A DNA stretch of 64,000 nucleotides from a virus, in the IMG/VR virus record IMGVR_UViG_3300037520_002383, positions 18,925 to 82,924 of that record; one strand, written 5' to 3'. Numbering within the stretch: the first letter of the stretch is position 1; each line of letters begins with the position of its first letter. Of the stretch, positions 18,868-60,021 are shown in pieces. Under the pieces are notes generated by a model. It was not told the DNA's origin. It did not search any database and saw only the letters and a list, made by a program, of their open reading frames with translations. The translations under genes and the position numbers were made by a program.

Positions 18868-19107
18868 ATGATTGATACCAATGAAATCCAACAGAAAGTG
18901 CAGTCGATCTGCGACGCCCACAGTGGTCCGCATCTGTTCGAGGGCGGCTACGGCCTATCTTGCTTCGTATCGGTGTGCGTTGATGCAGATGGCGAAAAGG
19001 TGACGGTACGCAACGCCGCCTACGGCAATGGCCTGCAGCTGGGCGCAGCCTTTTCTGATGCGATGAAGGCGGCCGGGTTCAACGAGTTCGATGTAGTTTT
19101 GGATTGA
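18868..19107 (+). CDS. hypothetical protein
   Basis: SD AGGA, MIDTNE start. Confidence 0.55.
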   Translation: MIDTNEIQQKVQSICDAHSGPHLFEGGYGLSCFVSVCVDADGEKVTVRNAAYGNGLQLGAAFSDAMKAAGFNEFDVVLD

Positions 19108-33904: not shown

Positions 33905-33982
33905 GATAAGCGCAGCCTCCTTGCGGCCGATGATAGCACACACATCGACAATAGGCAACTATCACGCGCTTCTGCAGAAAAA

Positions 33983-44106: not shown

Positions 44107-46104
44107 CGCGCAGACTCCCGATCAGATAATCCAGTATGCACTACCGTCGGACTGCACGCGAACGGCTTCGTGCTGAGAATATAGCACATAGTTAGTTGTA
44201 CCATCGATGGTACCGGCGATCGTTACGGTATTGGAAGATGTATCGATTTTTTTGATGGTAAAATGATATTCATTCGCAGAAGCCGCCGACGGCAAAGTAA
44301 TGGTTACGGCCCCGGAAGCGGCATTGACCAAGATTGTTCCATCGAATGTAGTGACGAGGTAGTTGGCGGTTTTGGTTGAGATGGGCGTCTTGAGGGCCTG
44401 AGGCACTACCCAAGAGAGGTTGCCAGAAGCATCATTTGATAGGACTTGGCCATTCACGCTGGCCTGAGACGCCGGCCAGCTATAGGCAATATTATTGATG
44501 CGCGTCAGATTGCCAGAAGAGCTGACGCGAAACTGCGACGATGAGCCGACGGAAAAGAAATCAGTGGGGTTGCTCGTGCCAATACCGACGCTACCGCCTG
44601 CCGTAATCCTCATGCGTTCGGTGGCGGCGCTGGCGGCGCTGGTGGTGCCGAACGCCAAGTCCGCGGAAAGAGTTGAAACTCCGTGATTGGTAAATACCCC
44701 CCACAATGCCGCGCCTTGAACCAAGGAGCCGCCAGTGCCGTTGGAGGCAAGCGTCAGCGTGTAGTAGTTGTTGTTCGTTGTGTCGGTATTTGCGAGCACC
44801 ACGCCAGACGCATCGGCATTCAGCGTCGTGTTGCTTGACGCCTTTGTCGCGCGCAGGCCGTGAACGGTGTTGTCACCGACAATATGCGCGGTGGCGGCGG
44901 GCGTGTTGGTATTGATACCCAGCCGTTGATTCTTCGTGTCGATGCCGAGGATCGTGGTGCCCGTCGCGTTCTGCACCTGAAACGCGGTGGTGCTGTCTGA
45001 TGTGTTTCTCGCCGTAACGTAACCGCCGTCGGCGATCGTGAAGGCGGCCGTGCCGTTGTCGCGGGCCAGGAAAATCGAAGCCGCCTGCGGGCCGTTGTCT
45101 GCGATGAGCGCGGCATCGGTATTGACAAGCGACGCCGTGAAAGGCGAGGCGTCAGTGTACAGCGAGAAGTAGCCGCCGATGATGTTGTTGCTGCCAGCCG
45201 AACGGATCGAGCCGCCGTACACACCCACTGATTTACCGGCGTTGCCAAGCGAAAGCCCCTGAATACCGACACTCAAAGTCGATGATCCGCCCGAGTAGCC
45301 GAGTGCGCCGACGCGCGTGCCCGAACCCGTGGGGGTCGTGCCTGTCGTCGTGGCGACGCTTAGGATTGCGCCGAAGTTGGCCTTCAGGGCGCCAGTGAAC
45401 GGCGTGAATGCCAGGACGCCCGTGCCCTCGGCATTGTTCTGGGTAGAGAAACCGACCGTGCGCCCCACCCCGGTGTAGCCCGTAGCGAGTTCCGCCACCT
45501 GCGCAACGACGAATCCATCACTCGATCCCTGTGGAATGACGGAAAAGTAGTTGGCGGTTTCGTAGCTATTTGCAACCGGAGCCGCCAAAGTGGCCGTCGT
45601 CTTGAGCGCTTGCTGTCCGCTGGCAAGCGTACCAGCGACGACGTCTAGCTTATTTGCGGGTATGTTCGTGCCGAGGCCAAGCCTGTTGTCTGTATCGTTC
45701 CAAAACAGGTTGGCGTTGTCTTGTGCGTAGACGCCAGAAGCACCTGCGAAGACAATACTCCCCGATGTAAGGGCCGTGCCCGTGCCCGTGCCGCCGTTGG
45801 CAACCCCTAATATACCCGTCAGCGACGAAGTTGGGATCGTGGTCCATACGCCGTCAGCGCGCAGGTAGTTGGTGGTGCCGCCGCCCGACGCCGGCGCCAG
45901 GCCCTTCAGGCTGCTTGTGAAGACGCTAAGTAGGGCGGTGACTTGAGTTCCTGTCAAGTCTTCGGGGGCGCCAGTGCCAGCCGTCGTTCGGCCCTTTATG
46001 GTCGCCGTCGGCACAGCCGCCAACTTGGCGTTGGTGACTACGGCACTGTCGATCGTCCATGTAGTACCACCACCCGAGACCGTGATATCGCCCTTGTCGC
46101 CGTC
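41200..46104 (-). repeat. five copies of a ~270-bp fibre repeat
   Basis: approx. 41200-41457, 41480-41742, 42370-42633, 42660-42925, 45845-46104. Confidence 0.85.
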
Positions 46105-46362
46105 TGTGGCTCCACCGCCACCGGTATCGATAACCCAAGTAAGGGGGCTGATCGCCGTGAGCTTATAGGCAAAGCCATCGGCTTGCACAGAAGCCCGCAT
46201 GCCGACCTTGAGTTTTTCCGTGGGGATCGCATCGCGCTCAGCGATGGTCGCCACGACCTGAAATCCACCCCAGATATCAGTGTCTTCAACGACGGGGAAG
46301 CTGAGGCCGTTTTTAGCCTTTACGGTATTGGCGACCTCAACGGGGCCGGGAATGGTAGTCAT
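44122..46362 (-). CDS. tail fibre protein
   Basis: one DGDKGDITVS repeat, GVANGGTG, RLGINT, ERMRI, C-terminal VTITLP..A...TIKKID. Confidence 0.8.
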   Translation of the reverse strand: MTTIPGPVEVANTVKAKNGLSFPVVEDTDIWGGFQVVATIAERDAIPTEKLKVGMRASVQADGFAYKLTAISPLTWVIDTGGGGATDGDKGDITVSGGGTTWTIDSAVVTNAKLAAVPTATIKGRTTAGTGAPEDLTGTQVTALLSVFTSSLKGLAPASGGGTTNYLRADGVWTTIPTSSLTGILGVANGGTGTGTALTSGSIVFAGASGVYAQDNANLFWNDTDNRLGLGTNIPANKLDVVAGTLASGQQALKTTATLAAPVANSYETANYFSVIPQGSSDGFVVAQVAELATGYTGVGRTVGFSTQNNAEGTGVLAFTPFTGALKANFGAILSVATTTGTTPTGSGTRVGALGYSGGSSTLSVGIQGLSLGNAGKSVGVYGGSIRSAGSNNIIGGYFSLYTDASPFTASLVNTDAALIADNGPQAASIFLARDNGTAAFTIADGGYVTARNTSDSTTAFQVQNATGTTILGIDTKNQRLGINTNTPAATAHIVGDNTVHGLRATKASSNTTLNADASGVVLANTDTTNNNYYTLTLASNGTGGSLVQGAALWGVFTNHGVSTLSADLAFGTTSAASAATERMRITAGGSVGIGTSNPTDFFSVGSSSQFRVSSSGNLTRINNIAYSWPASQASVNGQVLSNDASGNLSWVVPQALKTPISTKTANYLVTTFDGTILVNAASGAVTITLPSAASANEYHFTIKKIDTSSNTVTIAGTIDGTTNYVLYSQHEAVRVQSDGSAYWII

Positions 46363-47690
46363 AGGACCTCCACATTAGTGGTACCCAGACCCGCCTGAGC
46401 AGATCGATACACGCGATAAGAGACGCCATCCATGACGAGATTCGGGTTAGCGAGGATAAAGCCACCAACGACCTTTCCGACCTCGAATATGGCTTCGCCG
46501 TAGGCCACGGGGACTACAAACCAAATGTAGTATCCGGGATCAACGACGGTGGTAAACGAGGTTTGGCGGATGCCGGTGGCGCGGAATGCCAGGGCGCGAA
46601 CCTCGGACTCCCCCGTAATCTGCGTCGCTGCGCCAAAGAATACGCCGGGAACGGCGCCGGCGGCGGCGGGCGTGGGAGTCGGCGCGGCGCCAAAAGATAC
46701 TCCCAGCCCATCCAGGTCGCCGATCCACAACAAGTCATCCAGGGACTGAGTGTCGACATCGACAGGCACCCGCGCACCCCCGATGACGCGGATGCGATTG
46801 GTTACGGCCAAAATAGATGATTGAATATCCTTATTCCAAACTTGATGGATAATGCCCGTCAGTTGCAGGTATCTGCTGTAGCCCATTTCGGAGTCAAACT
46901 GGCTGTCGATATCAAGTTGCCCAGCAGATATAGAGGAGGCTTGAAATCCACGAGCCTCCAGATATCTTTCTCGATAACGCATCAGCGCATAGCGAATGGC
47001 CGCATACAGATACAGGGCATGTATTGGTTCGTGGTAACTATGACAGCCAACGCCGTAGAGTTCCCGCGAGACCTCCCCTTCCAATGGCATTAGGTATTTC
47101 TGGGGTGGCCAACGCAGGCGAAGATCCCTGAGGTCAATACGCAGCTGCTGGTTGTCAATCTTCACAACCTTCGACGACACCACCTCCGTTATCGGAAACG
47201 AACGGCCATTGCGTGTAAACAACACAACGCCGGAACTCAAGGGGGCTTGATAGGCGACATCGTCTGGAAGGGTAACGTAACCCGTCGTCCAATCAAAATC
47301 CCTAACCGTAAAGGGACGACTAAAAAATGGCTGTCCTCCATCGACCTTCTCGTATCCCGCCCAGTGGCTGTCACCTAATGTATTGTAAACTTCATCGCTT
47401 TTTTGGATTGCGATGGTAACAAACGTACCCTGACGAATGTTGTCGGGTACGCGAACGTTCGAAAATACCGGAATATCGGTATTCAAAAACCATTGTTTTG
47501 CCAGCTGAATCTGATTTTCGCCATACCCCGCGTGGTCGCGTGTCAGTTCATCCTGCGCCAAAGACGCCCAGATGTAATCCAGCTCATCGGGGCGCGCACG
47601 CAAGTCGGCAATAGCCGCCTCGATGGCGGTGCGAATGATGACGTCGCCCTGAAAAATACCGACGACTTCTGTTGAACGAACATCAGTCAT
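46359..47690 (-). CDS. tail terminator/neck-like structural protein
   Basis: GIFQGDVIIRTAI..; position in the neck cluster. Confidence 0.55.
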   Translation of the reverse strand: MTDVRSTEVVGIFQGDVIIRTAIEAAIADLRARPDELDYIWASLAQDELTRDHAGYGENQIQLAKQWFLNTDIPVFSNVRVPDNIRQGTFVTIAIQKSDEVYNTLGDSHWAGYEKVDGGQPFFSRPFTVRDFDWTTGYVTLPDDVAYQAPLSSGVVLFTRNGRSFPITEVVSSKVVKIDNQQLRIDLRDLRLRWPPQKYLMPLEGEVSRELYGVGCHSYHEPIHALYLYAAIRYALMRYRERYLEARGFQASSISAGQLDIDSQFDSEMGYSRYLQLTGIIHQVWNKDIQSSILAVTNRIRVIGGARVPVDVDTQSLDDLLWIGDLDGLGVSFGAAPTPTPAAAGAVPGVFFGAATQITGESEVRALAFRATGIRQTSFTTVVDPGYYIWFVVPVAYGEAIFEVGKVVGGFILANPNLVMDGVSYRVYRSAQAGLGTTNVEVL

Positions 47691-47749
47691 CGCAGCCTTC
47701 CCTTCACTACACCCCTTTGCCCACGCCAAAGGCGCCAGGAAGCGGGGGA

Positions 47750-47755
47750 AAGATT
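47750..47755 (-). promoter_or_regulatory. putative late promoter AATCTT
   Basis: intergenic, upstream of 47690. Confidence 0.55.
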
Positions 47756-47769
47756 CAGCGGCGAAGACG

Positions 47770-48621
47770 CTACTGGGCGTTTACCGACGTCAGGGCTTCA
47801 ATGATCTGAGGCAGGGCTTTCTCGGACCATTCTTTTTGCGCCCATTCTGCGGCCTCCTCAAAGAGGTGTTCCGCCGGCAGACCGGGATGAAACCAGCGCT
47901 TAGTGCCCGCATGTTTGGAGGAAACGATTCGAAACGTCATAACAGAGCGCTTCACCTTCTCCAACCCCGATTCTGTCTTGATGCGATGCTGATAGACGCG
48001 GACGCCATGCAGGAAGGGAATGCCCGTAGGCCCCTGACGAACTTGACCAATCTGTCCCCATCCCTGCCCCGCACCATGATGCGTCTTTAGGGGTTTCGAA
48101 GAGATGTCGAAGGCATGCAACATCCCCAATCGCGGACTGCCAGTGTCATCATTTTCGATTTTATTCCATGGAATCTTACGCTGAGCCATTTCCTTTTTGA
48201 TGGTGGAAATCAATGACTGCTGGGCTGGCGTCGTAGATGTCTGTCCTTTGCCTGGACCATGAGAAAAGGGAATCACGCGCCAACGATGGCCATCTTTAGA
48301 CGTATGAACCCGCATCTTGCCGCCCTTAGGCGTCAACAGGTCCTCAACCATGGAATGCGGTTCCAGGCCGTCATCAATCCAACGCACGCTCTTGTCGAGA
48401 ATCACAATCCAGGTATTATCATCTTCTTGAGCAAACGAAAGACCAGATAAGTAAGGTTTTAGGCGGGAGTGAAGCCGCGCGTTAGCGCCTTCAATGATGT
48501 GCGCATGTGCAGCTGCAGCGACATCGCGCGCCGCCCTCTGGACTAGCTGATTGATGACTTCCGGCTCCAGATTCTGCGCAAGGGTGGTCAACGCAGAGGT
48601 ATCCAAAAAGACGCGCAACAT
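47770..48621 (-). CDS. head-tail/neck completion protein (HK97 gp10-like)
   Basis: MTFRIVSSK...WFHPGLPAEHLFEEA; SD GGAGG. Confidence 0.6.
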   Translation of the reverse strand: MLRVFLDTSALTTLAQNLEPEVINQLVQRAARDVAAAAHAHIIEGANARLHSRLKPYLSGLSFAQEDDNTWIVILDKSVRWIDDGLEPHSMVEDLLTPKGGKMRVHTSKDGHRWRVIPFSHGPGKGQTSTTPAQQSLISTIKKEMAQRKIPWNKIENDDTGSPRLGMLHAFDISSKPLKTHHGAGQGWGQIGQVRQGPTGIPFLHGVRVYQHRIKTESGLEKVKRSVMTFRIVSSKHAGTKRWFHPGLPAEHLFEEAAEWAQKEWSEKALPQIIEALTSVNAQ

Positions 48622-48637
48622 GGCCACCTCCTATATA

Positions 48638-49975
48638 TTATCTCCCACGGGGGTTACGGCTCGAAAGAGGGTGGCTGGCGTGACCAAGAATCGGTGGTGC
48701 ATTGCGGTCGGCGACTGAAGTCACCTGTCCTGCCCGCGCCTGAATCCATGACACTGTACCATCAGCATGCTTCACCTTGATCTTGCCGACTTTGCGTCGA
48801 TCGCCGGTTGGCCCGCCCTCAATCATCGTCCCCGGCGGCAGGTTCAGATGACGACGTTTGGCAAGTTCCTCTTTTTCCAAGGGCATGCAAGCTTCCAGAT
48901 CCGAGTAGTAGCGAGGAGATTCCTTCAAATGCGCAAGAGCGATCTTAGCGATCTCTTTGGCGTCGGTGCTGACGTCGGCGTGCTCGCGTTCATGCCTGAT
49001 GCCTTTCTGCCATTCCTCAGGAGAAATCACATCGAAGTCTACACCCAACTCTTCGCCCAGCCCCTGGGCTTCTGCCACCGAAACGCCATCCATGACATCA
49101 ACTTTTTCCGATTTCTTGACTTCGGACTTAGCTGGAAGCGCACGGGCCAGTTCAATGACGCCCTGAATCAGAGCCTCCACAGAGGCATAGGCCGCCGGAG
49201 AAGCTGCTTTGAGCTGTGCCAACATAGGCGCCTGTTGACGAACTTGCTGCAACACGCTCGCTATCTTCTTTTTGGTCTCAGTGAGTCTCTCGCTTTGTCC
49301 CTGATCTTGCTGTTCGTCGCCGGTGTCGGCAAGTTCATGCAGATCGTCGATGAGATCGGCGGCGTGCGTCATTTCTGGCGACGGTGGCGTCTCCGCACCC
49401 GCAATCGCCTCTGAAAGAGCCGCTTCGCCCTCGCTGTGTTCGCTGGCTTCCTTCATTGGCGACGCTGGCGCGGCGGCGGGCCGCGAACGCGAAAAGCCCG
49501 TAAAACCGCCGTGGGCACCCGGATTTTCCGATAAAGCCTTCTGAAGGTCTGGCTTGGCTCGACCGCCTTGTCCTTCGATGTCCTGGTCTAGCTTCGCCGC
49601 CACCTCTGCACTCCACAAAACAGGCGTGCCACCGCGATACTCAGCCGCATAGCGACGAGCCTGCAGAGCCTTTTCGATGCTGGAGCCAATACCTACAGCC
49701 ACACCCTTTTCATCCAGAGCCTCCTGAAATCGTTGTCGCTGTCGCATGACCTGAGGCAACGCCCGAGGCGGTACCGAAACCACGCCCTCGCTGCCCGAGA
49801 GCATAACTACGCCGCCACCCAGTGCCTGAGCCCACAACACCCAAGAATCTTGGGTTGCCTTTTGCATCAGCTGATGCAGTCGCTGCAATCCCTCAGAATG
49901 AGCCGCCGCCACCATCGGCGCCATGCGATGGCCCATGTGGCATTGCCAAGCAACGTACAGCTTTTGCTGGTTCAT
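48638..49975 (-). CDS. head polyprotein: degenerate mCpol/palm domain plus DUF5661-like domain
   Basis: WAQALGGGVVMLSGSEG...VAVGIG; KGIRHEREH...KIALAHLKESPRYYSDL. Confidence 0.55.
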   Translation of the reverse strand: MNQQKLYVAWQCHMGHRMAPMVAAAHSEGLQRLHQLMQKATQDSWVLWAQALGGGVVMLSGSEGVVSVPPRALPQVMRQRQRFQEALDEKGVAVGIGSSIEKALQARRYAAEYRGGTPVLWSAEVAAKLDQDIEGQGGRAKPDLQKALSENPGAHGGFTGFSRSRPAAAPASPMKEASEHSEGEAALSEAIAGAETPPSPEMTHAADLIDDLHELADTGDEQQDQGQSERLTETKKKIASVLQQVRQQAPMLAQLKAASPAAYASVEALIQGVIELARALPAKSEVKKSEKVDVMDGVSVAEAQGLGEELGVDFDVISPEEWQKGIRHEREHADVSTDAKEIAKIALAHLKESPRYYSDLEACMPLEKEELAKRRHLNLPPGTMIEGGPTGDRRKVGKIKVKHADGTVSWIQARAGQVTSVADRNAPPILGHASHPLSSRNPRGR

Positions 49976-49994
49976 GACGACCCCTTAGAACGCG

Positions 49995-50000
49995 AAGATT
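49995..50000 (-). promoter_or_regulatory. putative late promoter AATCTT
   Basis: 20 nt upstream of ATG 49975. Confidence 0.55.
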
Positions 50001-50009
50001 GCGGTAAGA

Positions 50010-51245
50010 TCAGCGCTTTAGTACCTGATCGGGATGCGTCAGGCCCATCTTGGCGCCCGCCTGATCGATCAAGCCCAAGGCCGTCTCCAGCGGCATCTTC
50101 TGCGTCGAAGGCACAAACCCCTCATCGGAGGGTTCGGTGAACTGGCCGGTGACGGCGCGATGAACGGCGTCATGCATCACCGTGTTGAGTTCCTTGTGAA
50201 AGACATCGTCGGGAATGTGCAAGCCGATCTTCTCCGACAACTCACGCTGCTTGTGAGCCGCCAGCCACTCCCAATGCACGGCCCGCTTAGCCTCGCGCAT
50301 GCTGCGATGAATGCCCAGTTTGCCGATGCGGCGCCCTTCCCCGTACATCTTGTTGAGTTCAGGATACACCAAGGCGTGAGACAGTTCGTGGATCTGACGC
50401 CAAGCATCGGTGTAGTCGCGATCGCCAAAATCGCCACCCGAAGCCGGCGTGGGATCGTAAACCATCAAGTGGTTCGTGTTGTAGTTGCGGTTGGCGAGAT
50501 CCGGCTTCCCGTGCTGGCCACCGGCATAGTAGGTCTGAAATCCGTGGTGGGCGACCAGATCACGAACTGCCGGCAGCTTGCCGCGGTAATCGTAGTGGAA
50601 GAGATCGCTCTTCGTCCCCGGACGAACTTCGCCGTAGGGCTTGGCGTAGTGGGCGTATGTCGACACCCCCACCCCCGCAGCCTGCTCGTTGGCGGACTTC
50701 GGCGGCGCATCCATATGAGGATGAGCGCCGGGCTTCGGCGGCGCCGGCGGATTGTCGGCCTTCGCCAGCCCCGCGAGGTGCATGCGCGTGTGGCCATCAT
50801 GCCACGGATAGGCGTGGGGGTGCGAGTAGCGTCCCCGCGGTGCCTCTGACTTCGCCAGAGCCTGCTCCTGCGGCAGGTGGCTGTCGGCGCCGTGGCCACG
50901 GAATCGATAAAGGCCTTTTTGATCCCGCAGACGCTGCGTGACTTCCGACGGCACGGGACCAATCGGCTCCATTCCCAAAGCCTTCAGGTGCTGCGAGTAC
51001 AGGGCGCCATGACGCTGTGCCTCTTCGATTGCACCCGCAGCCTTTGCCGTCCTGGCGCCCATCAGGTGATGGGCAGCAGCATTGAGGTGCTGCTCGCGGA
51101 CGTATTCGTCGTAGGTTTTGCGTTCGGCGGCTTCGCGCGTCAGGCCATGGCCGAACTCCAACACCGCCGCTCGACGATCGAGTTCGGCGGCATGTTTATC
51201 GTCAATCAGCCGTCGCCCCTGCCAAAGGCCATCATTCTTAGTCAT
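50010..51245 (-). CDS. head polyprotein with C-terminal zincin-like domain
   Basis: LAKSE, LAKAD linkers; QIHELSHAL...VHWEWLA. Confidence 0.6.
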   Translation of the reverse strand: MTKNDGLWQGRRLIDDKHAAELDRRAAVLEFGHGLTREAAERKTYDEYVREQHLNAAAHHLMGARTAKAAGAIEEAQRHGALYSQHLKALGMEPIGPVPSEVTQRLRDQKGLYRFRGHGADSHLPQEQALAKSEAPRGRYSHPHAYPWHDGHTRMHLAGLAKADNPPAPPKPGAHPHMDAPPKSANEQAAGVGVSTYAHYAKPYGEVRPGTKSDLFHYDYRGKLPAVRDLVAHHGFQTYYAGGQHGKPDLANRNYNTNHLMVYDPTPASGGDFGDRDYTDAWRQIHELSHALVYPELNKMYGEGRRIGKLGIHRSMREAKRAVHWEWLAAHKQRELSEKIGLHIPDDVFHKELNTVMHDAVHRAVTGQFTEPSDEGFVPSTQKMPLETALGLIDQAGAKMGLTHPDQVLKR

Positions 51246-52698
51246 GGCTTCGTACCCCATAGACATTATCCAAAAAAGCCAAGATGGCATTTTCTTTCCA
51301 TTTGCCACCGAAGGAAAGTAAGTACGAAGAATCCGTCTTTTCGAGTCTTACATCAGACGCCAGATCGCGGAAGCAATGGCATGCCTCAAAACGACCGTCA
51401 GCCGACAGCCGTTGACCATCGCAAACGCCACAGGCCGTAGACAGCTGTTTTTCTGAGAGACGTAGCGACGGCAACTTTATTGCAGTTGAATCCAGCTTAG
51501 GTTGTCGTGGCCGCAGTTTTGGGGGTTGACTCTGTTGGCGAGTAGGGGGATTGGGTGCCAATGGGCCACCCTGGGGGGTGGGTTTGTTGGCGGGCCCCGG
51601 CGCCTCCGTTCTTCCCTTGCCCGCCTTCTCTAGATCCGAGTGCAGTTGATTGAAGTCGAAGTAGTGCGTAAAAACACGACCGTCGGGAAGAATGGTATAG
51701 TAATCCTCAGGCTTTTGATTATGCCACTGAGTGCCTTGCCCCGGATGATATTTACCTACATTTTCACCATTGACCATCAACATCTTATGGCTAGCGCCAT
51801 CTGAATGAATAACCGATTCCTGTCCCAGATCTCGCGCCAGCCCCTCAATCAACTTCGGATTTTTGGGATTGTAAATGATGAGGGAGTTTTCGGGTCGGCC
51901 ATAGCTACCGACGGTCGGATGCGCGTCCTCTCCTGCATCCCGCAGATACTGAAGGGCCTGCTGATTGCTGAGATTTTTAGCTTGAGGGAACAGGGGGTTT
52001 TCAGCCGACATCAGGGTGTGGGGCGGCAGGGAAGATTCGTTCTTTTTCAAGGCTGAGGTCTTGTTCATCAAGCCAAGGAGTACATCCACCATCTTCTTTT
52101 CCAGCGTCGAGTATTTTGTGTCGATCTGCCAAGAATGAAGACGGAGATCGTCGGGTCGCACGCCCGTCAGCGTCAATACGCCAGCTTGGTGGTTGTTGCC
52201 ATCAAGAGCCCTGATGATGGTGCGCGGCGGCTCTTCCTGAACATCATATTCCTTTTCAAAAGAAAGGGTCTTTTCTGCGGCGCTTTTGCGCAGGACCGCA
52301 TGAGCCACCCGAGCCCGAACTAGCGCGTCTACGCTTTTGCCGAGACGATACAGATGATCGTCGCTCACGGCAACCGACACTCGCTGGCGCTCTAATCCAA
52401 GACCAACACCTAGCGCCGCCGCGACGTGCAACAGAGAAGCGTCTTGAAATGTATAGTTGATGTCGGCGACCGACATGCAGCCGCTAAAGCCGGCTTCTGT
52501 CTTTTGCAAGACCAGGCGTCCGCCGCCTCCCGGAATCTCACCGTCATAGCCGCGTCCAGCGAGGCTCAGCCACGCATATAGTGCGCGCGGCAGCATTGCG
52601 TTATCGAGATGCGGCAGCCTTTGGGCGGCCTTTTGCAGAGCCGCGGCCCCTTCCATCCCCACAAGCGCCGTCAAAATCTGATGTCGATCCATAGTCAT
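51238..52698 (-). CDS. head polyprotein containing a T3-type SAM-lyase-like domain and a C-terminal Zn ribbon
   Basis: LMSAENP..VGSYGRPENSLII..LGQESVI..YYTILPDG; CGVC..CHCF. Confidence 0.6.
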   Translation of the reverse strand: MTMDRHQILTALVGMEGAAALQKAAQRLPHLDNAMLPRALYAWLSLAGRGYDGEIPGGGGRLVLQKTEAGFSGCMSVADINYTFQDASLLHVAAALGVGLGLERQRVSVAVSDDHLYRLGKSVDALVRARVAHAVLRKSAAEKTLSFEKEYDVQEEPPRTIIRALDGNNHQAGVLTLTGVRPDDLRLHSWQIDTKYSTLEKKMVDVLLGLMNKTSALKKNESSLPPHTLMSAENPLFPQAKNLSNQQALQYLRDAGEDAHPTVGSYGRPENSLIIYNPKNPKLIEGLARDLGQESVIHSDGASHKMLMVNGENVGKYHPGQGTQWHNQKPEDYYTILPDGRVFTHYFDFNQLHSDLEKAGKGRTEAPGPANKPTPQGGPLAPNPPTRQQSQPPKLRPRQPKLDSTAIKLPSLRLSEKQLSTACGVCDGQRLSADGRFEACHCFRDLASDVRLEKTDSSYLLSFGGKWKENAILAFLDNVYGVRSHD

Positions 52699-53591
52699 CA
52701 CCTGGGGCTAAATGTGCCGACACGCGGCGCTGGAGCTTGTCGCGGAGTTACGGGAGGCGACAGAGCGTCGCCTTCAACGGGCGCCGACTCCGACTCAAAC
52801 AAGTATTCTCTCTGAATAGCCAAACTCATGGGCATACGCTGAACGCGACTCGTCCCGTCTGGCATCTCGCCTCTCGCCACACGCACTTCGTGCATGAGCT
52901 GTGTCACATACCAATAGGGGCGATAGAGGTAGCGAATGCCACATACCACACCCCCATCGCCCGGTATCGGCCCCTTGGGTCGGCGGCGGTCATCCCACAC
53001 AATCATCCCATGATCAATAGTAAAATCTACGTTTTGTGCGTAGCGATTGCCGTCGCTATCGACAAGATCGACTACATACTCAACGGGAAAACTGCAACGG
53101 TCCTTGCCAGTGATGGAACACTCAAAGACCTCCCAGTTTGTCACAAAGATGCCGGGCTCAGTCAAATACAACCTATCATATTTCGTGGCATAAAACGGGG
53201 TTTGCGTACTATCATAAAATCTAGGAGTAGTGACTTGGGCTACGCCATCTCCCACCAAACCGCCGGTTGTCTGACGATCAACGGCGTTGTTGCCGGTAAA
53301 GATGGCGGTGATTTGACCGCCGAGAGTATACAAGAATCCGTGACTGCAACCAGGATGATTATCATGCATTTTGCGGATGTCGGTCGTCGTAGCTAGACCA
53401 ATCGGACAGCGCATGGCACGATAATGCAGGAACTGAACGCCGTGGCTGAAGATGGCGTTATCGAAAGCATCAGTATCAAAAGACGAGGCGTCGCGAGGGA
53501 AATCGGCGACTAGGGCCACAGCAGGCGGTGGCTCTGAAATCGTCTGACCGCCGATAATGGGATAAGTAGAAGTTTTGATGCCACTCGACAT
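52698..53591 (-). CDS. head closure/neck protein
   Basis: HYRAMRCP...CSHGFLY, KYDRLYL, YLYRPYWYV..L.HEVR. Confidence 0.65.
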   Translation of the reverse strand: MSSGIKTSTYPIIGGQTISEPPPAVALVADFPRDASSFDTDAFDNAIFSHGVQFLHYRAMRCPIGLATTTDIRKMHDNHPGCSHGFLYTLGGQITAIFTGNNAVDRQTTGGLVGDGVAQVTTPRFYDSTQTPFYATKYDRLYLTEPGIFVTNWEVFECSITGKDRCSFPVEYVVDLVDSDGNRYAQNVDFTIDHGMIVWDDRRRPKGPIPGDGGVVCGIRYLYRPYWYVTQLMHEVRVARGEMPDGTSRVQRMPMSLAIQREYLFESESAPVEGDALSPPVTPRQAPAPRVGTFSPR

Positions 53592-53594
53592 GGA

Positions 53595-53912
53595 TCAATA
53601 CCCCTGGCGGCCACGAACGGCGTTGGTGATGGCTTCCCACTTCGGTAGTAGATGACGAATGCAGTCTTCTCCAACGAACTCGGATTTATTGAGTTCCGTG
53701 AACTGAAGCCCCTTGGCTTTCTTGGAGGCCAACCACCGCGCCACAGCCTTATGGCTGCCGACGCCCAGGGTCTCTGTGCCTTTTTTGCGCGCCGCCAATA
53801 CCATATACAGACCGCCAACGGTCGAGACTTCATAGACAGCGTCTTCGCCGTCAACACCGATCTTTTTCTTGGATCGGACTTCTGAAGCGGGAATGGTTGC
53901 GGCTGTCGACAT
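53595..53912 (-). CDS. small head protein
   Basis: TVGGLY..LGVGSHKAVA..ELNKSE; SD GGAGG. Confidence 0.6.
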   Translation of the reverse strand: MSTAATIPASEVRSKKKIGVDGEDAVYEVSTVGGLYMVLAARKKGTETLGVGSHKAVARWLASKKAKGLQFTELNKSEFVGEDCIRHLLPKWEAITNAVRGRQGY

Positions 53913-53942
53913 AATGGCCTCCAAGGGTCGTACTCGCCCTAA

Positions 53943-53948
53943 AAGATT
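53943..53948 (-). promoter_or_regulatory. putative late promoter AATCTT
   Basis: 31 nt upstream of ATG 53912. Confidence 0.6.
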
Positions 53949-53951
53949 GCC

Positions 53952-56045
53952 TCAGAGCCCAGCCCACAGACCATTTACGAATCGTCCGAGATCGCCGGCG
54001 GCATTTTTGATTTGACGGAGACGCATGATCTCGGGTCGGGGGTCGATATCGAATGACCTTAGCACGTCAGCCATGACATCTTCCGACAATCCGGCCAACC
54101 AAGACTTCATGCGCATGGCGGCCGCTGCTGGTAGATCGGGCATGACCGCCAGCTTGTCTTTCGGCGCAAAGGTGTTGAAAGTTGATCCAAAAGGCAACAT
54201 AAATCGCAGGTAGTAGGGGGTAAATGACTGGCGATCGTGTGCGGGATCAAAATGAACTCCCGCAAATGTCGAGCCATGATCGATCAATCGGATCTCGCCA
54301 TCTGGATTCATCAGCATGTTGTGGCCATGGCGATCGCCGTTGCCAGCCACCCAATCCAATACCGACCATTGCCATATTCGACCGCGCAAGCGATAGGACT
54401 CCAGCGCCGACAAAACTCGTCCGGCGTCGTCTTCGCGAATGTCAATCAGAGGACGGTATTCGGCGGGAAGAAAGAAAATAGCCGCATAAAGTTTGTCGCC
54501 ATCAACCCTCATCCATTCGGTGCGGGAGAGATCTGCAGCCAGCCCCCAAGAGCGCGCTAACTGCCAAAAGGCGCTCTCACGAGCGCTTGGCGGCGAAAGA
54601 TCATCCTCAATGCCCTTTATGGGCCCCGCACGACCACTACCCGGCTTCATGTACCAACTACCACTGGGCGTGTCGATAAAGAAAGAACCGGCGCTGTGTC
54701 GGCCATCAAGGTGAGCGGGTCGAGCTGAAAAGATGTTCTGGTTCAGAAGCTCAGCGACATCTTCTCCGCTTGAATGCATTGCCTCTACCCGTGACTGCGG
54801 GGTTACCGGTAGATCGGCAAGATGTTTTGAAGAATCCGATGCCCCAAGACGATCGCCTTGGTTTTTGATCAAGACTTCGGTTTTTACGAGTGGCATCATT
54901 TCGACAGCCGATTTCAGGATGTCGCGATTTTCCGGCGTATCAAGCCAATCAATAGCCGCCAAGGCCGTGGCCACGGGGTCAGCGTCATTCAGCCATGCAA
55001 GCTCACGAATATGTCGTAGAGTGTCGTCGTCGTCTCGTACCTTGCCGCCAGTCAACGATAATGCTGTGCGCCAATGCGCGTATATACTCGGTGGCAAAGT
55101 CAACAATGCGTCGCGAGCCGCTTCTGATTTATGCAGACGCGCGGTAGACATATAATCAGCAATCCGCTGAGAAATATCTAATGAGATATTACGCATCATC
55201 GCCAGATGACGCAATGCGTCCATATCATTTTCCCTAATCGCCGTTTCCATCCATTCTTCAGCGTCGTCTTCGGTGAGCGGCGCCGACAAGGGCACTCGAT
55301 ACCAGGCCTCTTGCGGCGTTACTAGTTGTTCCCAAAACTGCCGCCAGACATCTTCAGGCATCAGAGCCTGCACATCGGGGCTAGCGCCGTCAATGAACAA
55401 AAGCAAGGGATTCTCTTGGAACGGCAGATCGGCTGGCGAACGCTGCGCCAGATGACGATAAAGGGTGGGCACGAACTGCAGTGGCAGGGTCGGCTGCAGG
55501 GCATCCAATAAATGTTGGCCATCGCCTGCTGATTCTATATCTAGCCGCTTCAGCAACGCATCGCGCCCATCGTCCGTTCGCAGATGTCGGGCGTTGTATT
55601 CGCTGGCCGCGGGATGGCCGATGATATCAAGGAGTCGATGCAGCTGAACGTGTCGCACTACATCACACCAAGCCTTAGCGTCATGCAAATGATGAATGAT
55701 ATCCGATGCCGGCAAATCATTCACAACTCGGTTTACGATCGCCCGTGAAACATGTCGAGGGCCAAAGCCCGGCATCGTCGTCGCCAGCGCCCTCTCTCGC
55801 GCATCGGGGTCGGAAATGGCCCTGAAGGCATCCTCTTCTTCTTCGGGAGCAGGCTGAAACGGAACGACTTCCTCGCCCTTATGATTCAAAAACCACTCAT
55901 GGGCCGTTGCACGAATGGCCGCAGACGCCGCGGCGTTGTTGAGGTCGTCAACACTCGCCAAAGCGGAGGCAATCTCGCTGCGCCCCGATCTGGGGTTCAG
56001 TACGATTCTCTCGGCCGCCTTCAATGTCGCGATTACGTCGCTCAT
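53952..56045 (-). CDS. helical-repeat protein fused to a HipA/PI3-4K-like kinase
   Basis: WYMKPGSG, ARESAF, DWVAGNGDRHGHNMLM, LIDHG. Confidence 0.75.
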   Translation of the reverse strand: MSDVIATLKAAERIVLNPRSGRSEIASALASVDDLNNAAASAAIRATAHEWFLNHKGEEVVPFQPAPEEEEDAFRAISDPDARERALATTMPGFGPRHVSRAIVNRVVNDLPASDIIHHLHDAKAWCDVVRHVQLHRLLDIIGHPAASEYNARHLRTDDGRDALLKRLDIESAGDGQHLLDALQPTLPLQFVPTLYRHLAQRSPADLPFQENPLLLFIDGASPDVQALMPEDVWRQFWEQLVTPQEAWYRVPLSAPLTEDDAEEWMETAIRENDMDALRHLAMMRNISLDISQRIADYMSTARLHKSEAARDALLTLPPSIYAHWRTALSLTGGKVRDDDDTLRHIRELAWLNDADPVATALAAIDWLDTPENRDILKSAVEMMPLVKTEVLIKNQGDRLGASDSSKHLADLPVTPQSRVEAMHSSGEDVAELLNQNIFSARPAHLDGRHSAGSFFIDTPSGSWYMKPGSGRAGPIKGIEDDLSPPSARESAFWQLARSWGLAADLSRTEWMRVDGDKLYAAIFFLPAEYRPLIDIREDDAGRVLSALESYRLRGRIWQWSVLDWVAGNGDRHGHNMLMNPDGEIRLIDHGSTFAGVHFDPAHDRQSFTPYYLRFMLPFGSTFNTFAPKDKLAVMPDLPAAAAMRMKSWLAGLSEDVMADVLRSFDIDPRPEIMRLRQIKNAAGDLGRFVNGLWAGL

Positions 56046-59000
56046 GTTTCACCGTAGGCTGCAGCAATGGCCTTGCCCTTCTGATACTCTTTCTGCGCCG
56101 TCTTCAGGTATTCGTCAAGATGTTTCGACGTACCGTCTGAAATCAGCCAGTCTTTCAGGTTGTCGTGCAGCGACTCATAACCCCTGTTCCAGCCCATGGA
56201 CGACTTCGGTTCCATGTCGTTGTTCATCATGATTAGGGAGATGATGTTGCCGAGACGCGCGTCCTCGATACCACCACCCCTTGACGGGCTGCGTTTGGCC
56301 AGCAGGGCATGGTTGACAACGGCGTTGTTGAGGCGTTCGTTGTCGCCATCGATTTCTCTTCGATGAGCAAAGGCGACGAGACGCGCAAACTGAGCACAGT
56401 TGTGCGTGTAGGCCATCGGGATCTTTGCGTCCACCTCGCCGGTGTCGGTGAAATGGAAGAAGTGCTTAGCCTCACGCCGCTTCTGATCTTCCTCGGCGGT
56501 TGCGGCTGGCGGCAGCATGTGGCTGAGGGCGACGTCGTGCGAGTAGTGACGAGCCGGGATCTCGGTCGTCGCCTCTTCCATCGCCGCCTGCGGTCTCATG
56601 CCCTTTCCACGCGACTCGTAGTCGTGATCGCGGTGTGAAACGCTGTGAAACAGTTCGTGCATCACCACAGACCAATGGTCGTGGTGGGCGTCGAGGTCGA
56701 AGGCTGCCGATCCGCCAAGAGACTCCATGAAGCGGCCGGCGTGGTTATCATGCACCTTGACGCCGCCACCGTCTTTGGCGACATAGACGCCGCCAACATT
56801 GGCGCCCAGCTGCTCGCCGCTGGCCCTGCCGACCGACGTCAACGGCAGCGACTGACCGCCTTCGTTGATACCGGTGACATGCGCTAGACCACGGCGTAGA
56901 CGCTGAAAGTGAGATAGGTTTCGGGCGTCGTCGAATGCTGCGCCCCACTTGCCTAATGTATCTGCATGCACCTGCGCTATCGCCTTGCTGCGCAGGTCAC
57001 CAGAGGCCGCGGAGGCCGCGCGCATGGCCTTGTTGTGGGCTGCACGGATGTCGCTGGGCTGATGCGGGAAGGCGAAGTCCTCGTGCTTGGGTATGAACGA
57101 AGGGTCGATCTTCGGCGGCGGCCGATTCACGAAGTCCATCTTCTTGAGGCGCTCAGCGGCGGCACCGGCGTGTGCCGGCTCCTGCCAGAACTCATCCTGA
57201 CCATAGGCGCGGACGACGCCCATCGGCTGCTTGGCTAGATGCGTGGGCTCCTTGGTCTTCAGGGCCTTCCAGAACTCGTGGTTGCCCGTCGGCTCGCCAA
57301 TCGGCTTCTCGGCCTTCAGGAGATAGGAATAGGCGCCGGCACCGTCGTCGTAGTCCGAGCCCAACTTCGCATTCGGCTTGTACTCCGGCTCGTAGGCCAT
57401 GCCATGTTTTTGCGCCAAGTGTTGATGGGTGCGCGAAGCCGCCGTTGAGTGCTCCTGACCCGCGACACTGCGCAGCCCCAAATGGTTCTTGGCATGGGCC
57501 AGAAGTGCCTCATACATTGCCACTCCCAGCCCCTGTCGCCTCAGAGCGCGATGTAGGAAGGTGTTCGTGATGTTGAGTGTCTTGCCGTCGACGCCACCGG
57601 AGGCAGTACCCACTTGCTTGCCTTCGCTGTTGTAGAGTCGCACATGGGGTGTACGGCCGCCTGACGCCTTGATATCCATCACGCGCAGCGACAGTCCCTG
57701 ACTGCGATGTTCAGGCGTCAGCAGATGGTTGTAGTCAAAGGTATTTGCGTCGATCCTCTGCCCAACGGGAATATCCTTGAGCGCCATCTTCTGGAGATCG
57801 ACCTGCGACTTCCGCAGGAAGGTCTCTCGGTACGGGCCGTAGGAATCCAGTGCCTCCTGAGCGTCGGTAACGTGAGGAATGTTGCCGCCAGCCACGGAAT
57901 AAAGGCGTGTGATGGGGCGACCGCTGAAGTCGTTCTCGGTGATGAAGCGCTTGTCGGGATTGTCAAGAGCCTCGTCGAGTTTGTGGAAGGAGTAGCCGTT
58001 CAGCGTCGTAGACGCCACGGGCTTCTCGTCCCAAACCTCAGACGTTTGTGCGTAGTGCCTCTCGGGAGTCTCTGGAGTCCCCTTAGCTCCAGTGACGCCG
58101 GGAGTCGCAAGGATCTTGTCCCAGACCTTGTTGGCTGTCGGCGAAACCGACGAGTCGCTGCGCATCGTCCCGTGGTACCGCAGCATGCGGCGGTAGAGCA
58201 GGGTGCCGTAGCCCGTGCCCTGGGCGCTGGCGTGCGTTGCCGTCTCGCCGTGTTCAACTGCGCCATCACCGCGAACTGTGGCTGCCGACGACGACACGGC
58301 GAACCCAGTGGGCTCCTTGTCGTAGGAGAGTATGTGGGTCACCGCATAGCCGCCGTGATCGTACGGCGTGTGCTTCACGACGTGATGGTACAGCGGCTTT
58401 TCGCGGGCATGTGACTGCTCGCCCGGCGGACGCTGATTGTGCGGAACCTGATATGTCTCGACACTCTGCAGCCCGCCCTCATACTCACTGGCGCGATGAG
58501 GCCTCATGGCCCCCTGCGCAACCTCATAAGCCATTTTCTTCAGCGTGCGGGGCTTGATCTGCACTTTCGCCGGCGCCTTCATGCCCTGCATCGTCTTCAT
58601 GTATTCTTTGACGTAGCCGGACTTGGCGATCTGTTGAGGCGTGGCCTTGAGGGCGGCACCGCGGCCCCAGCGCCAGCCATAGGCTGTGCGCTCTGGCGTC
58701 TTCAGCTTGTCCTTCAGCCACTGCCAGTGATCGGAGGCGACCTCGTTGTAGAACTTGGAATCATTGTGAAACTTAGCCGTAAACTCTTCTGGATCAAGTC
58801 CCGGATACTTGGCTTGCAGCGCCTTACTATTCTGATACTGATCGTATGCAGAAATAGGCTTCATACCCAGAGCACCATACGCTGTATGAAATACTCCCTT
58901 GGAGTGAGGCTCGTGGTGTACGTTTTTACCAAAAGAAGATTCTAGGTGCGCAACGGGATGGAGGCCCGGATGCAAACCCTCTGCCGTCCATTTGCTGGGG

Positions 59001-60010
59001 TCTGTTTTGGGTGGAGGCGCCGATAGAACTTGGGGCTGAGTAACCTCCACGGCCGCCGAGGGCGACAATACCGGACCATGTAGTTGGCTTCCCAAAGCAA
59101 ATCCGCCAAGGCCAATAGCCGCCGCCAGTGCCTTTTCCTTCAGCCCCTTTTCAAGCCGGTGGCTGTCGCCGAGGTGCAGTGTCGGCAGTGCGTCGGCAAC
59201 CAACTGCACATCAGCCTCAGTCGCCGGGCTTTCGGCGTCAGGCATCTTTTGGTGCTGGATGTCGACGACGCTGACGGGCTGATGAGTATGAATCTGCTCG
59301 TTGTTGAGCCACTTTCCGGCCCATTCGTTGGCTGCGTGGTCACCATAGGCGTCATGAATCGTGTTGCCAACACGAGCGCCGACGTGGTGAATGTCATCCC
59401 CCAGCTGAATGCCGACGAGCCTTGCCTCTGGATGCTTCTTTTGGATGGCCCTCGCCAGCAGATTGCAGCCGCCGGCGTGCCATGACGACCCCGCGGCGGC
59501 GGTCTGATCGAGTACGCCGTAGCTTTCGTTGGACCCGCACCACTCAGCGAGCCCCGAGCTTTTCACGAGATCGGGATCCCAATCCTGCATTCCCAGCAGC
59601 CTCAGGGTGACGTTGCGGGGGGAATGCAGGTGGTCGCCGATCTCCTTTGGCAGACCGTCGCTGACATTGACCCAGCGCCATTCGCTGCATTCGTTGTCGG
59701 GGTCTTCTTCTGTCGTCACCCGAGGCTTCTCGGCGTCGTGCAAAACAACTTGATAGGCATGAACAAGGATTCGGCGCTTGCCGGAGTCGACGACCTCGGC
59801 GCCCAAGGATTCCAAGACCTCCTGGGTCTGCAGGCCCGTTTCTTCCTGAAGTTCACGGACAGCGCCGTCGTAGGCATCTTCGCCTTCATCTAGATGGCCA
59901 CCCGGCAATGTCCAGCGGCCATTATCCCGGCGGCGACCCCAAAGCATATCGCCCGCATCATCAAAGACGGCAATGGAGGCGACTTCGACGGCATCTTTGG
60001 TATCAGCCAT
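56042..60010 (-). CDS. polyvalent virion polyprotein: Nudix, papain-like, SLT/lysozyme-like, GNAT x2, zincin
   Basis: GGHLDEGEDAYDGAVRELQEETG; GGCNLLA..HHV..HDAYG; HLESSFG..AYG; QGTGYGTLLY; RRQGLGVAMY; HELFH..EEATTE. Confidence 0.75.
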   Translation of the reverse strand: MADTKDAVEVASIAVFDDAGDMLWGRRRDNGRWTLPGGHLDEGEDAYDGAVRELQEETGLQTQEVLESLGAEVVDSGKRRILVHAYQVVLHDAEKPRVTTEEDPDNECSEWRWVNVSDGLPKEIGDHLHSPRNVTLRLLGMQDWDPDLVKSSGLAEWCGSNESYGVLDQTAAAGSSWHAGGCNLLARAIQKKHPEARLVGIQLGDDIHHVGARVGNTIHDAYGDHAANEWAGKWLNNEQIHTHQPVSVVDIQHQKMPDAESPATEADVQLVADALPTLHLGDSHRLEKGLKEKALAAAIGLGGFALGSQLHGPVLSPSAAVEVTQPQVLSAPPPKTDPSKWTAEGLHPGLHPVAHLESSFGKNVHHEPHSKGVFHTAYGALGMKPISAYDQYQNSKALQAKYPGLDPEEFTAKFHNDSKFYNEVASDHWQWLKDKLKTPERTAYGWRWGRGAALKATPQQIAKSGYVKEYMKTMQGMKAPAKVQIKPRTLKKMAYEVAQGAMRPHRASEYEGGLQSVETYQVPHNQRPPGEQSHAREKPLYHHVVKHTPYDHGGYAVTHILSYDKEPTGFAVSSSAATVRGDGAVEHGETATHASAQGTGYGTLLYRRMLRYHGTMRSDSSVSPTANKVWDKILATPGVTGAKGTPETPERHYAQTSEVWDEKPVASTTLNGYSFHKLDEALDNPDKRFITENDFSGRPITRLYSVAGGNIPHVTDAQEALDSYGPYRETFLRKSQVDLQKMALKDIPVGQRIDANTFDYNHLLTPEHRSQGLSLRVMDIKASGGRTPHVRLYNSEGKQVGTASGGVDGKTLNITNTFLHRALRRQGLGVAMYEALLAHAKNHLGLRSVAGQEHSTAASRTHQHLAQKHGMAYEPEYKPNAKLGSDYDDGAGAYSYLLKAEKPIGEPTGNHEFWKALKTKEPTHLAKQPMGVVRAYGQDEFWQEPAHAGAAAERLKKMDFVNRPPPKIDPSFIPKHEDFAFPHQPSDIRAAHNKAMRAASAASGDLRSKAIAQVHADTLGKWGAAFDDARNLSHFQRLRRGLAHVTGINEGGQSLPLTSVGRASGEQLGANVGGVYVAKDGGGVKVHDNHAGRFMESLGGSAAFDLDAHHDHWSVVMHELFHSVSHRDHDYESRGKGMRPQAAMEEATTEIPARHYSHDVALSHMLPPAATAEEDQKRREAKHFFHFTDTGEVDAKIPMAYTHNCAQFARLVAFAHRREIDGDNERLNNAVVNHALLAKRSPSRGGGIEDARLGNIISLIMMNNDMEPKSSMGWNRGYESLHDNLKDWLISDGTSKHLDEYLKTAQKEYQKGKAIAAAYGET

Positions 60011-60021
60011 GGCTTGTTCCT

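Follow-up and report, generated by a model that had tools for sequence, protein, structure and literature searches.

A T3-type SAM-lyase-like domain embedded in a late-operon protein of an Mx1-like phage

S-adenosylmethionine (SAM) lyases are textbook early enzymes against restriction and against bacteriophage exclusion (BREX). What would a domain of this kind do inside a protein from the late operon of a phage? The question is raised by a gene for a protein of 487 amino acids (aa) in the window, by which we mean the whole analysed stretch of 64,000 nucleotides (nt), positions 18,925 to 82,924 of the IMG/VR virus record IMGVR_UViG_3300037520_002383. The parent record comprises 82,924 bp with 58% G+C and is estimated to be about half complete. 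An initial annotation had placed a T3-type SAM-lyase-like domain between the short strings LKKNE and LEKAG of a late head protein. These two strings indeed flank aa 223–356 of the protein, whose open reading frame (ORF) at 51238–52701 on the minus strand holds the segment as nt 51634–52035, and the strings TLMSAENP, VGSYGRPENSLII, LARDLGQESVIH and YYTILPDGRVF that had been quoted from the domain are all found in aa 223–356. As far as homology alone is concerned, we are highly confident that the domain is a homologue of the SAM-lyase family with an intact catalytic signature. In our best explanation it is a true member of the SAM-lyase superfamily, of the self-contained-barrel type of phage T3, and probably catalytically competent. 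The gene, the domain and its signature residues are located as follows, with the evidence in brackets.

51238..52701, minus strand: whole gene, 487 aa (ORF list, translation, identical records, orthologues)
51634..52035, minus strand: inserted T3-type SAM-lyase-like domain, aa 223–356 (AlphaFold2 (AF2), Foldseek, VIA, hhalign, PF23780)
51907–51909, 51901–51903 and 51889–51891, minus strand: domain signature residues G265, Y267 and E271 (hhalign mapping)
51817–51825 and 51787–51789, minus strand: domain signature residues G293-Q294-E295 and H305 (hhalign mapping)

Fold, family and active-site signature of the domain

The AF2 model of the domain, with alignment A1 as input, reached a predicted local distance difference test (pLDDT) value of 95.1 and a predicted template modelling (pTM) score of 0.87, and it consists of two helices and nine predicted strands. 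The best PDB match in a Foldseek search was the T3 SAM lyase (8bb1_E, E = 9.3e-4), which was the sole match at E ≤ 0.001 among at least 500. Structural comparison with VIA gave Z 11.7 to 8bb1_E, with a root-mean-square deviation of 3.2 and 118 of 141 residues aligned, and Z 11.3 to 7ock_J over 119 residues; Svi3-3 (6zm9) followed with Z 6.0 over 82 residues, and the best unrelated chain reached 4.9. A fold match to a SAM lyase had been chosen beforehand as the test on which the assignment could fail, and it was found both with the T3 enzyme (8BB1/7OCK) and with Svi3-3. The T3 SAM lyase (SAMase) has been characterised as a monomer, a barrel of nine strands with two helices outside it, and Svi3-3 as a trimer whose active sites lie at the interfaces (bioRxiv 10.1101/2023.02.27.530186). 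A monomeric barrel fits a domain that is able to work embedded in a larger protein. An obligatory trimer for the embedded domain was considered and rejected, because the enzyme that it matches, of T3 type, is monomeric.

The active site leads to the same family. For a profile comparison, 45 relatives of T3 gp0.3 (NC_003298) were collected and 15 of them aligned (alignment A2). Alignment of the domain family with these 15 T3-type enzymes by hhalign covered 117 columns (E = 0.006) and paired G265, Y267, E271, Q294 and E295 with T3 G55, Y57, E68, Q94 and D95, and H305 with T3 H105. The T3 strings given in the initial annotation (VLVSAFR, GCY, EEKTV, EQDCVL and FTIDEFGRRW) all occur in the real T3 gp0.3, and their proposed pairing with strings of the window was reproduced exactly by the profile–profile alignment. 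Among 147 family sequences, G293 is conserved in 100%, Q294 in 99%, Y267 in 98%, E271 in 97% and G265 in 95%, so that the key Glu (E271) and Gln (Q294) on which the T3-type assignment had been based proved conserved, in addition to the fold match of Z 11.7. Further near-invariant residues of the family, G312, P331, G316 and S300, lie outside those aligned to T3. In the SAMases aligned by Guo et al. (PMC7877911), only G56, E69 and Q104 are given as strictly conserved, with Y58 and E105 also lining the site. For Svi3-3 the same paper reports a turnover of 9.5 per second, activity losses of 1500- to 4500-fold in E69 mutants and packing of the Gly-x-Tyr pair on the ribose and the gamma-carbon of SAM. 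A T3 E68Q/Q94A double mutant is described as inactive (bioRxiv 10.1101/2023.02.27.530186).

The domain belongs to a large family. In a phmmer search of 1.84 billion representatives, 508 cluster representatives were found at E ≤ 1e-3 and 290 at E ≤ 1e-10. Among the short relatives of alignment A1, 17 of 23 match PF23780 (S-AdoMet_lyase) at E ≤ 1, the best at 6.2e-9, and nine of 23 match DUF3293 (PF11697) at E ≤ 1, the best at 1.2e-7; the window domain is not listed among the latter. Two giant relatives, P0012 (36.1 bits) and P0079 (35.9 bits), which had been found at E 2e-29 to 1e-21, exceed the 28-bit cut-off of PF23780. The nearest ESM Atlas clusters are viral and carry PF23780 or PF11697, some of them both. 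Because family members match both PF11697 and PF23780, DUF3293 is probably a branch of the SAM-lyase superfamily, as far as profile matches can tell; no mention of DUF3293 was found in the literature searched.

A number of observations weigh against the assignment. PF23780 scored 18.9 bits on the window domain (E = 0.0015) and 15 bits on the whole protein (profile positions 2–130 of 133), both below the gathering cut-off of 28. Sequence searches of PDB chains, with the single domain as well as with the family profile, returned antibody and ankyrin noise and no SAM lyase. The direct sequence link to the T3 clade is weak: the hhalign probability was 6% at E 0.006, comparison with the single T3 sequence gave E 0.31 over 23 columns, and the family hidden Markov model (HMM) reached no more than 8.6 bits with any of the 45 T3-like proteins, five of which had E < 0.01 in that small set. 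In the structural alignment the domain shares only 11–17% identity with the T3 enzyme. The conserved Tyr-to-Glu loop counts three residues in the window domain versus ten in T3 and Svi3-3, and the MetK-binding tail of T3 has no counterpart in the domain, since the alignment starts at T3 residue 11. Taken by itself, the sequence evidence for SAM-lyase kinship is thin.

The host protein, the insertion and the late gene block

The 487-aa gene is real, as is seen from an identical record, from orthologues and from a syntenic copy. It forms a single ORF from a GTG to the stop codon at 51238–51240. The identical protein is already in databases (P0197, P0206), whose versions begin at ATGs 3 or 9 nt inward and thus count 486 and 484 aa. 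Four more orthologue clusters show 64–71% identity over the full length, and a 131-kb IMG/VR contig (locus L003) carries a syntenic copy with 71% identity and the same gene order. Apart from the domain, the protein is composed as follows.

52051..52701, minus strand: N-terminal scaffold, aa 1–217, with a helical and beta subdomain followed by a GNAT-like half-fold at aa 136–215 (AF2, VIA, BFVD)
52036..52050, minus strand: upstream junction motif LKKNE, aa 218–222, a candidate processing site (motif enrichment, homologues)
51619..51633, minus strand: downstream junction motif LEKAG, aa 357–361, with Gly as its final residue instead of the Glu/Asp of the strict motif (orthologue alignment)
51478..51618, minus strand: Pro-rich linker, predicted to be disordered, aa 362–408 (pLDDT 29–46 in the full-length model)
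51241..51477, minus strand: small C-terminal domain, aa 409–487, Cys4, zinc-ribbon-like (alignment A4, pLDDT ~86)

The full-length AF2 model is mediocre, with a pLDDT of 64 overall and ~80 in the N-terminal part, and it has no Foldseek PDB match at E ≤ 0.001. In the wide VIA search with aa 136–215 of the scaffold, GNAT acetyltransferases fill nearly all of the 50 top rows with Z 7.6–5.8 over 59–81 aligned residues, values that are middling by the tool's own caution. The top BFVD match of the full-length model is a phage protein labelled 'NAT_SF domain' (E = 3.2e-13). By sequence, the Pfam scan gave no GNAT match to the scaffold, and searches of PHROGs and NCBIfam returned nothing useful for the 487-aa protein. 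In the linker a PGPAHKPT...P...QPPK pattern is conserved (alignments A3 and A4). C424, C427, C441 and C443 are invariant columns of the 13-sequence alignment A4 (C421, C424, C438 and C440 in P0197); the C-terminal Cys4 domain thus resembles a zinc ribbon and may bind zinc. Due to the GNAT-like Z scores, the NAT_SF match in BFVD and the four invariant C-terminal Cys residues, we regard the host protein as enzyme-like; it is not recognisable as a head protein. The label of a head structural protein was rejected, since nothing with the fold of a capsid, portal, decoration or scaffold protein turned up. From the initial description as a late head protein, the word late can be kept, in view of the position between the ThyX side and the tail sheath and the synteny with Mx1, while the word head does not agree with the GNAT-like scaffold.

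The domain had been described as embedded, and it is in fact a clean insertion, since other homologues of the host protein lack it. In three shorter homologues (P0201, P0202 and P0203) both protein flanks are matched and aa ~249–356 are skipped, and a search from P0201 gave five more short homologues. Applied to 15 sequences of the scaffold family, the domain HMM recognised seven at E ≤ 4e-56 and none of the other eight better than E = 2.4. Within the protein it is the insert that is conserved best, with 78–87% identity versus 55–60% for the N-terminal domain. Five orthologues bear the insert, and their downstream junction reads LEKAG or LSKAG; at the uninterrupted site of P0201 and P0202 stands LEKAD or LEKGD.

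The position of the domain was tallied in the 150 best representatives of the family: 79 long proteins have it at the N-terminus, 30 internally and 21 at the C-terminus; 20 proteins have up to 220 aa and 29 have more than 1000 aa. It had been remarked at the outset that SAM lyases are normally stand-alone early genes, which holds for the T3 gene and needs qualification for this family, where 130 of the 150 best representatives lie in proteins of more than 220 aa. Among 50,697 sequenced phage records, Mx1 is the only phage with the domain, and no match was found in a plasmid collection. The syntenic orthologue of the scaffold in Mx1 (WNM70337) has no match to the domain, which sits there in a different late protein, WNM70344, adjoining the tail sheath gene on its upstream side. 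On sequence comparison, insertion of the domain as a mobile module into a GNAT-like/Cys4 protein is the best explanation. In WNM70344 (Mx1 OR576727, L004 37603–39282), the domain stands between Pro/Ala-rich repeats of the type NKMEMPATKE.ANGGP. That protein ends in a Cys-rich tail after FGKSE, comparable to the Cys4 domain at the end of the window protein.

The gene for the 487-aa protein is part of a minus-strand row of genes that stretches from ~62.3 kb, beside ThyX, as far as the tail sheath gene (34580–37126). The row encodes a 1327-aa protein with Nudix and GNAT domains (56042–60025, minus strand), a 697-aa protein with a PI3_PI4-kinase-like catalytic core (53952–56045, minus strand; 28.1 bits versus a cut-off of 27.1), a DUF5661 protein, a phrog_772 'tail fiber' protein and a neighbour that matches phrog_1004 'virion structural protein'. 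The adjacency of the Nudix+GNAT protein and the PI3/PI4-kinase-like protein is conserved in Mx1. Another neighbour, of 432 aa (50010–51308, minus strand), contains the HExxH motif HELSH and has no match in Pfam, PHROG or NCBIfam; the motif makes it a possible zincin-like peptidase, which might process the proteins of the block. At its N-terminus it matches Mx1 WNM70338. In Mx1 the order of capsid gene, thymidylate synthase, deoxynucleoside monophosphate (dNMP) kinase, Nudix giant, kinase and then sheath matches. We conclude that the gene belongs to an enzyme-bearing late block of an Mx1-like myovirus, flanked by the ThyX/capsid side and by the tail sheath, together with the Nudix+GNAT giant and the PI3/4-kinase-like, HExxH and DUF5661 proteins.

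Two side observations concern the borders of the block. ThyX (62775–63488, minus strand) and dNMP kinase (33110–33958, minus strand) bracket it, and because in Mx1 ThyX and dNMP kinase lie together just after the capsid gene, the block is rearranged relative to Mx1. Upstream of the sheath, a 994-aa and a 746-aa protein (41122–46362, minus strand) share repeated segments of ~70–180 aa and also match several places in the contig of locus L003, which suggests that this pair is repeat-built and fast-evolving.

Relatives of the domain reproduce part of this neighbourhood within single polypeptides. Thirteen giant relatives were scanned, and in them the domain is fused to ART-PolyVal once (P0045), to DUF5661 three times (P0045, P0073, P0090), to a PI3_PI4-kinase-like domain twice (P0056, P0078), to GNAT twice (P0042, P0090) and to DUF6321 once; the ART-PolyVal, DUF5661, kinase-like and GNAT fusions amount to six of the 13. 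No MuF domain was present in the 13. Kinase-like, GNAT and DUF5661 domains are those encoded by the neighbouring genes of the window.

Proposed delivery, substrate and the alternatives

We tested the junction motif in the form [LIVMF]-x-K-[SANGTM]-[ED]. The nine proteins of 46359–60025 (minus strand) contain 13 instances of it, as compared with 2.2 ± 1.5 in 2000 shuffles, none of which reached 13. The remaining 20,423 aa of the contig hold six occurrences, which amounts to a ~10-fold enrichment in the block (Fisher p = 2e-6). Among homologues drawn from the 150 best representatives, and with Gly allowed in the last place, 34 of 73 have the motif upstream of the domain at a distance of up to 28 aa and 53 of 114 have it downstream, with ~10% expected. 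Across the first 50 kb of Mx1, instances are found in the portal (two), in the 'prohead protease' (three), in the gene just before the capsid gene (four) and in the cargo block, and there is none in the helicase, sigma factor, sheath and tube genes. Repeats of the NKME/SKME/HKMD kind flank the domain in WNM70344. Glu in the last place of the motif recalls the cleavage sites of the head proteases of T4-type and giant phages. From these sequence patterns we consider the motif a candidate processing site of a maturation protease that marks head cargo; that cleavage takes place at these motifs seems to us a little on the doubtful side.

We hypothesize that the protein would be made late and loaded into the head together with other proteins of the block, that a maturation protease might cut it at junctions of the L-x-K-x-E type, and that it would enter the next host with the DNA. 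There the module would cleave SAM to methylthioadenosine and homoserine lactone, which would starve the defences that depend on SAM (type I/III restriction, BREX) ahead of the expression of any phage gene. Packaging and delivery, to which the position of the gene, the fusion partners of its relatives and the junction motif point, appear to us evenly balanced. An even chance is also what we give to the overall reading of a real SAM-lyase-family module that sits in a late cargo-type protein and acts on SAM or a close derivative. That all the proposed steps hold together is unlikely.

Several results speak against delivery. Neither a MuF domain nor a known capsid-targeting leader was found for the protein, and its scaffold is enzyme-like rather than structural. 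The Mx1 capsid is without the strict motif and TerL has two, and the downstream junction ends in Gly, not in Glu or Asp, in all five insert-bearing orthologues. Given the size of a cell's SAM pool, tens of injected copies working at the Svi3-3-like rate of 9.5 per second would need minutes to drain it, and such a slow drain makes the postulated protection 'at the moment of injection' doubtful. No virion proteome of Mx1 was found in the literature search.

An improbable alternative is that an active SAM lyase is not packaged at all and works late in the producing cell, for instance in the shut-off of SAM-dependent host systems or of the methylation of progeny DNA. The place in the late operon would then be a matter of timing only. 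This would agree with a scaffold that is GNAT-like rather than structural, with neighbours that are enzymes, and with the slowness of a few injected copies as a weapon at a turnover of 9.5 per second. It is harder to reconcile with a junction motif that is common to the Mx1 portal gene and the gene before the capsid gene, with relatives that fuse the domain to ART-PolyVal, and with the published example of cyanophage S-CREM2, for which a virion-associated SAM hydrolase and a kinase are reported (PMC10665884).

If the module is delivered, a wider reading suggests itself, which we put forward tentatively and regard as rather doubtful as a whole: the SAM-lyase module could be an interchangeable cartridge of a widespread, unpublished cargo system of large uncultured phages. 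SAM lyase, ART, PI3/4-like kinase, GNAT, Nudix, zincin and DUF5661 would be encoded either together in a single giant polyprotein or by genes in a row; they would be packed into the head, severed at phi-x-K-[S/N/A]-[E/D] by the maturation protease and injected as an anti-defence cocktail. The motif would in that case stand for a new specificity of a protease and would serve as a tag for predicting injected proteins from sequence.

Delivered or not, the domain needs a substrate, which is probably, not certainly, SAM; for catalysis on SAM the balance tips slightly in favour. Since the Tyr-to-Glu loop is seven residues shorter than in T3, the loop that covers the substrate is different and the substrate may differ. 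It is quite improbable that the fold and chemistry are the same and the substrate is another adenosyl-sulfonium compound, be it SAM-AMP, as for an anti-CRISPR against type III systems, or another SAM derivative. There is a precedent in AcrIIIB4 (DAN18478), a phage protein fused to an N-terminal domain that is reported to cleave SAM-AMP and not SAM (PMC12255297). According to the same source, SAM and SAM-AMP lyases share only Glu and Gln structurally and the T-loop sets the specificity; in the SAM-AMP lyases (the C. botulinum enzyme and AcrIIIB4), a long T-loop, with W64 and C66, contacts the AMP moiety. The loop that is seven residues shorter than in T3 and Svi3-3 would suit this alternative, as would the near-invariant G312, P331, G316 and S300, which are not among the residues aligned to T3. 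However, by far the best structural match is the T3 SAM lyase (Z 11.7) and not a trimeric PII-like enzyme, and conservation extends to the Gly-x-Tyr pair, which in Svi3-3 packs against the ribose and gamma-carbon. Among the fold-search matches listed no solved SAM-AMP lyase is named, which speaks for those lists only.

Could the domain act without catalysis? In T3, the N-terminal tail (M1–N9) and the beta4–beta5 loop are described to bind and inhibit the host MetK, and even in a catalytically dead form T3 SAMase retains an effect by way of MetK binding (bioRxiv 10.1101/2023.02.27.530186). Of the features that contact MetK in T3, the window domain has only His305, aligned to T3 H105, in common. 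MetK inhibition as in T3 was rejected, the tail being absent. A non-catalytic derivative, kept for structure or regulation as a module that binds SAM, nucleosides or a protein, could take the dead T3 enzyme and the score of the window domain under the Pfam cut-off as its arguments. With Glu, Gln and Gly-x-Tyr conserved at 95–99% in 147 diverse sequences, a pattern typical of an active enzyme, and with the MetK-binding tail absent, we consider it very improbable. That the domain is unrelated to SAM lyases and resembles them by chance or through a common alpha/beta sandwich is extremely improbable: ferredoxin-like and PII-like folds are common and many such chains reach Z 4–5, but the gap between Z 11.7 with 118 of 141 residues aligned and 4.9 is wide, relatives exceed the curated cut-off of Pfam and the signature residues coincide.

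If the module is active and delivered, the chemistry known from early anti-restriction enzymes would also be deployed as a pre-made, injected weapon, and if so, a cartridge would be shuffled between late proteins and giant polyproteins in a large group of phages of which almost none is in culture. Through the junction motif, injected cargo could become recognisable in sequence data. With WNM70344, Myxococcus phage Mx1 offers a cultured handle for experiments.

Comparison with known systems

The closest known enzyme is T3 gp0.3 (8BB1, 7OCK; PF23780). The two share the fold, down to the closure of a self-contained barrel by C-terminal strands, as well as Gly-x-Tyr, the catalytic Glu and Gln-Asp/Glu. 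They differ in context and in detail: T3 gp0.3 stands alone and is early, being the first coding sequence of its genome, whereas the window domain is inserted in a 487-aa late-operon protein, is without the MetK-binding N-terminal tail and has a Tyr-to-Glu loop that is shorter by seven residues. With Svi3-3 (6ZM9; PMC7877911), the domain has a core alpha/beta sandwich in common and conserves the equivalents of G56, Y58, E69, Q104 and E105, but it fits the monomeric T3 type much better.

AcrIIIB4 resembles the window protein in that a SAM-lyase-family domain with the same catalytic Glu is fused to another domain in a phage protein. In contrast to the window domain, it is described as a predicted trimeric, PII-like protein that acts on SAM-AMP instead of SAM, and no late-operon or cargo context is attached to it in that account (PMC12255297).

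The ensemble of domains recalls the polyvalent proteins of phages. In the account of Iyer et al. 2017 (PMC5512222), such proteins encoded near late genes are argued to be virion-delivered together with the DNA, and processing by a protease is proposed for them. Ejection proteins of SPN3US and a cleavage motif are treated in PMC10052503. The window protein likewise joins disparate domains in one polypeptide (GNAT-like, a weak assignment; SAM-lyase-like; Cys4) and is encoded among late and virion genes, and its relatives are fused to ART-PolyVal, kinase and GNAT. In contrast to polyvalent proteins, the ensemble of the window is mostly split into separate neighbouring genes. The main text of PMC5512222 makes no mention of SAMase or S-adenosylmethionine, and in the literature searched SAM lyase and polyvalent protein co-occur only through a reference list.

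The nearest precedent for delivery is cyanophage S-CREM2, in which mass spectrometry of purified virions is reported to have identified ORF6 as a virion-associated SAM hydrolase, with a kinase too (PMC10665884). Among the titles and abstracts listed in a search on SAMase and virion, none concerned a packaged SAMase. P0001 and P0005, compared with the 50,697 phage records, matched only Mx1 and gave no S-CREM2 match, the presence of S-CREM2 in that collection being unchecked. Our case has in common with S-CREM2 the notion that a SAMase and a kinase are delivered side by side, and differs in that ORF6 is a stand-alone protein of a T4-like cyanophage. Because of this virion proteome, a delivered SAM lyase is not a new idea, and the present case extends a known theme with a proteomic precedent and opens no new one. 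To these systems it adds a domain cleanly inserted into a GNAT-like scaffold, a module that is mobile among the late proteins of Mx1-like phages, a link to giant ART-, kinase- and GNAT-bearing proteins and a quantified junction motif.

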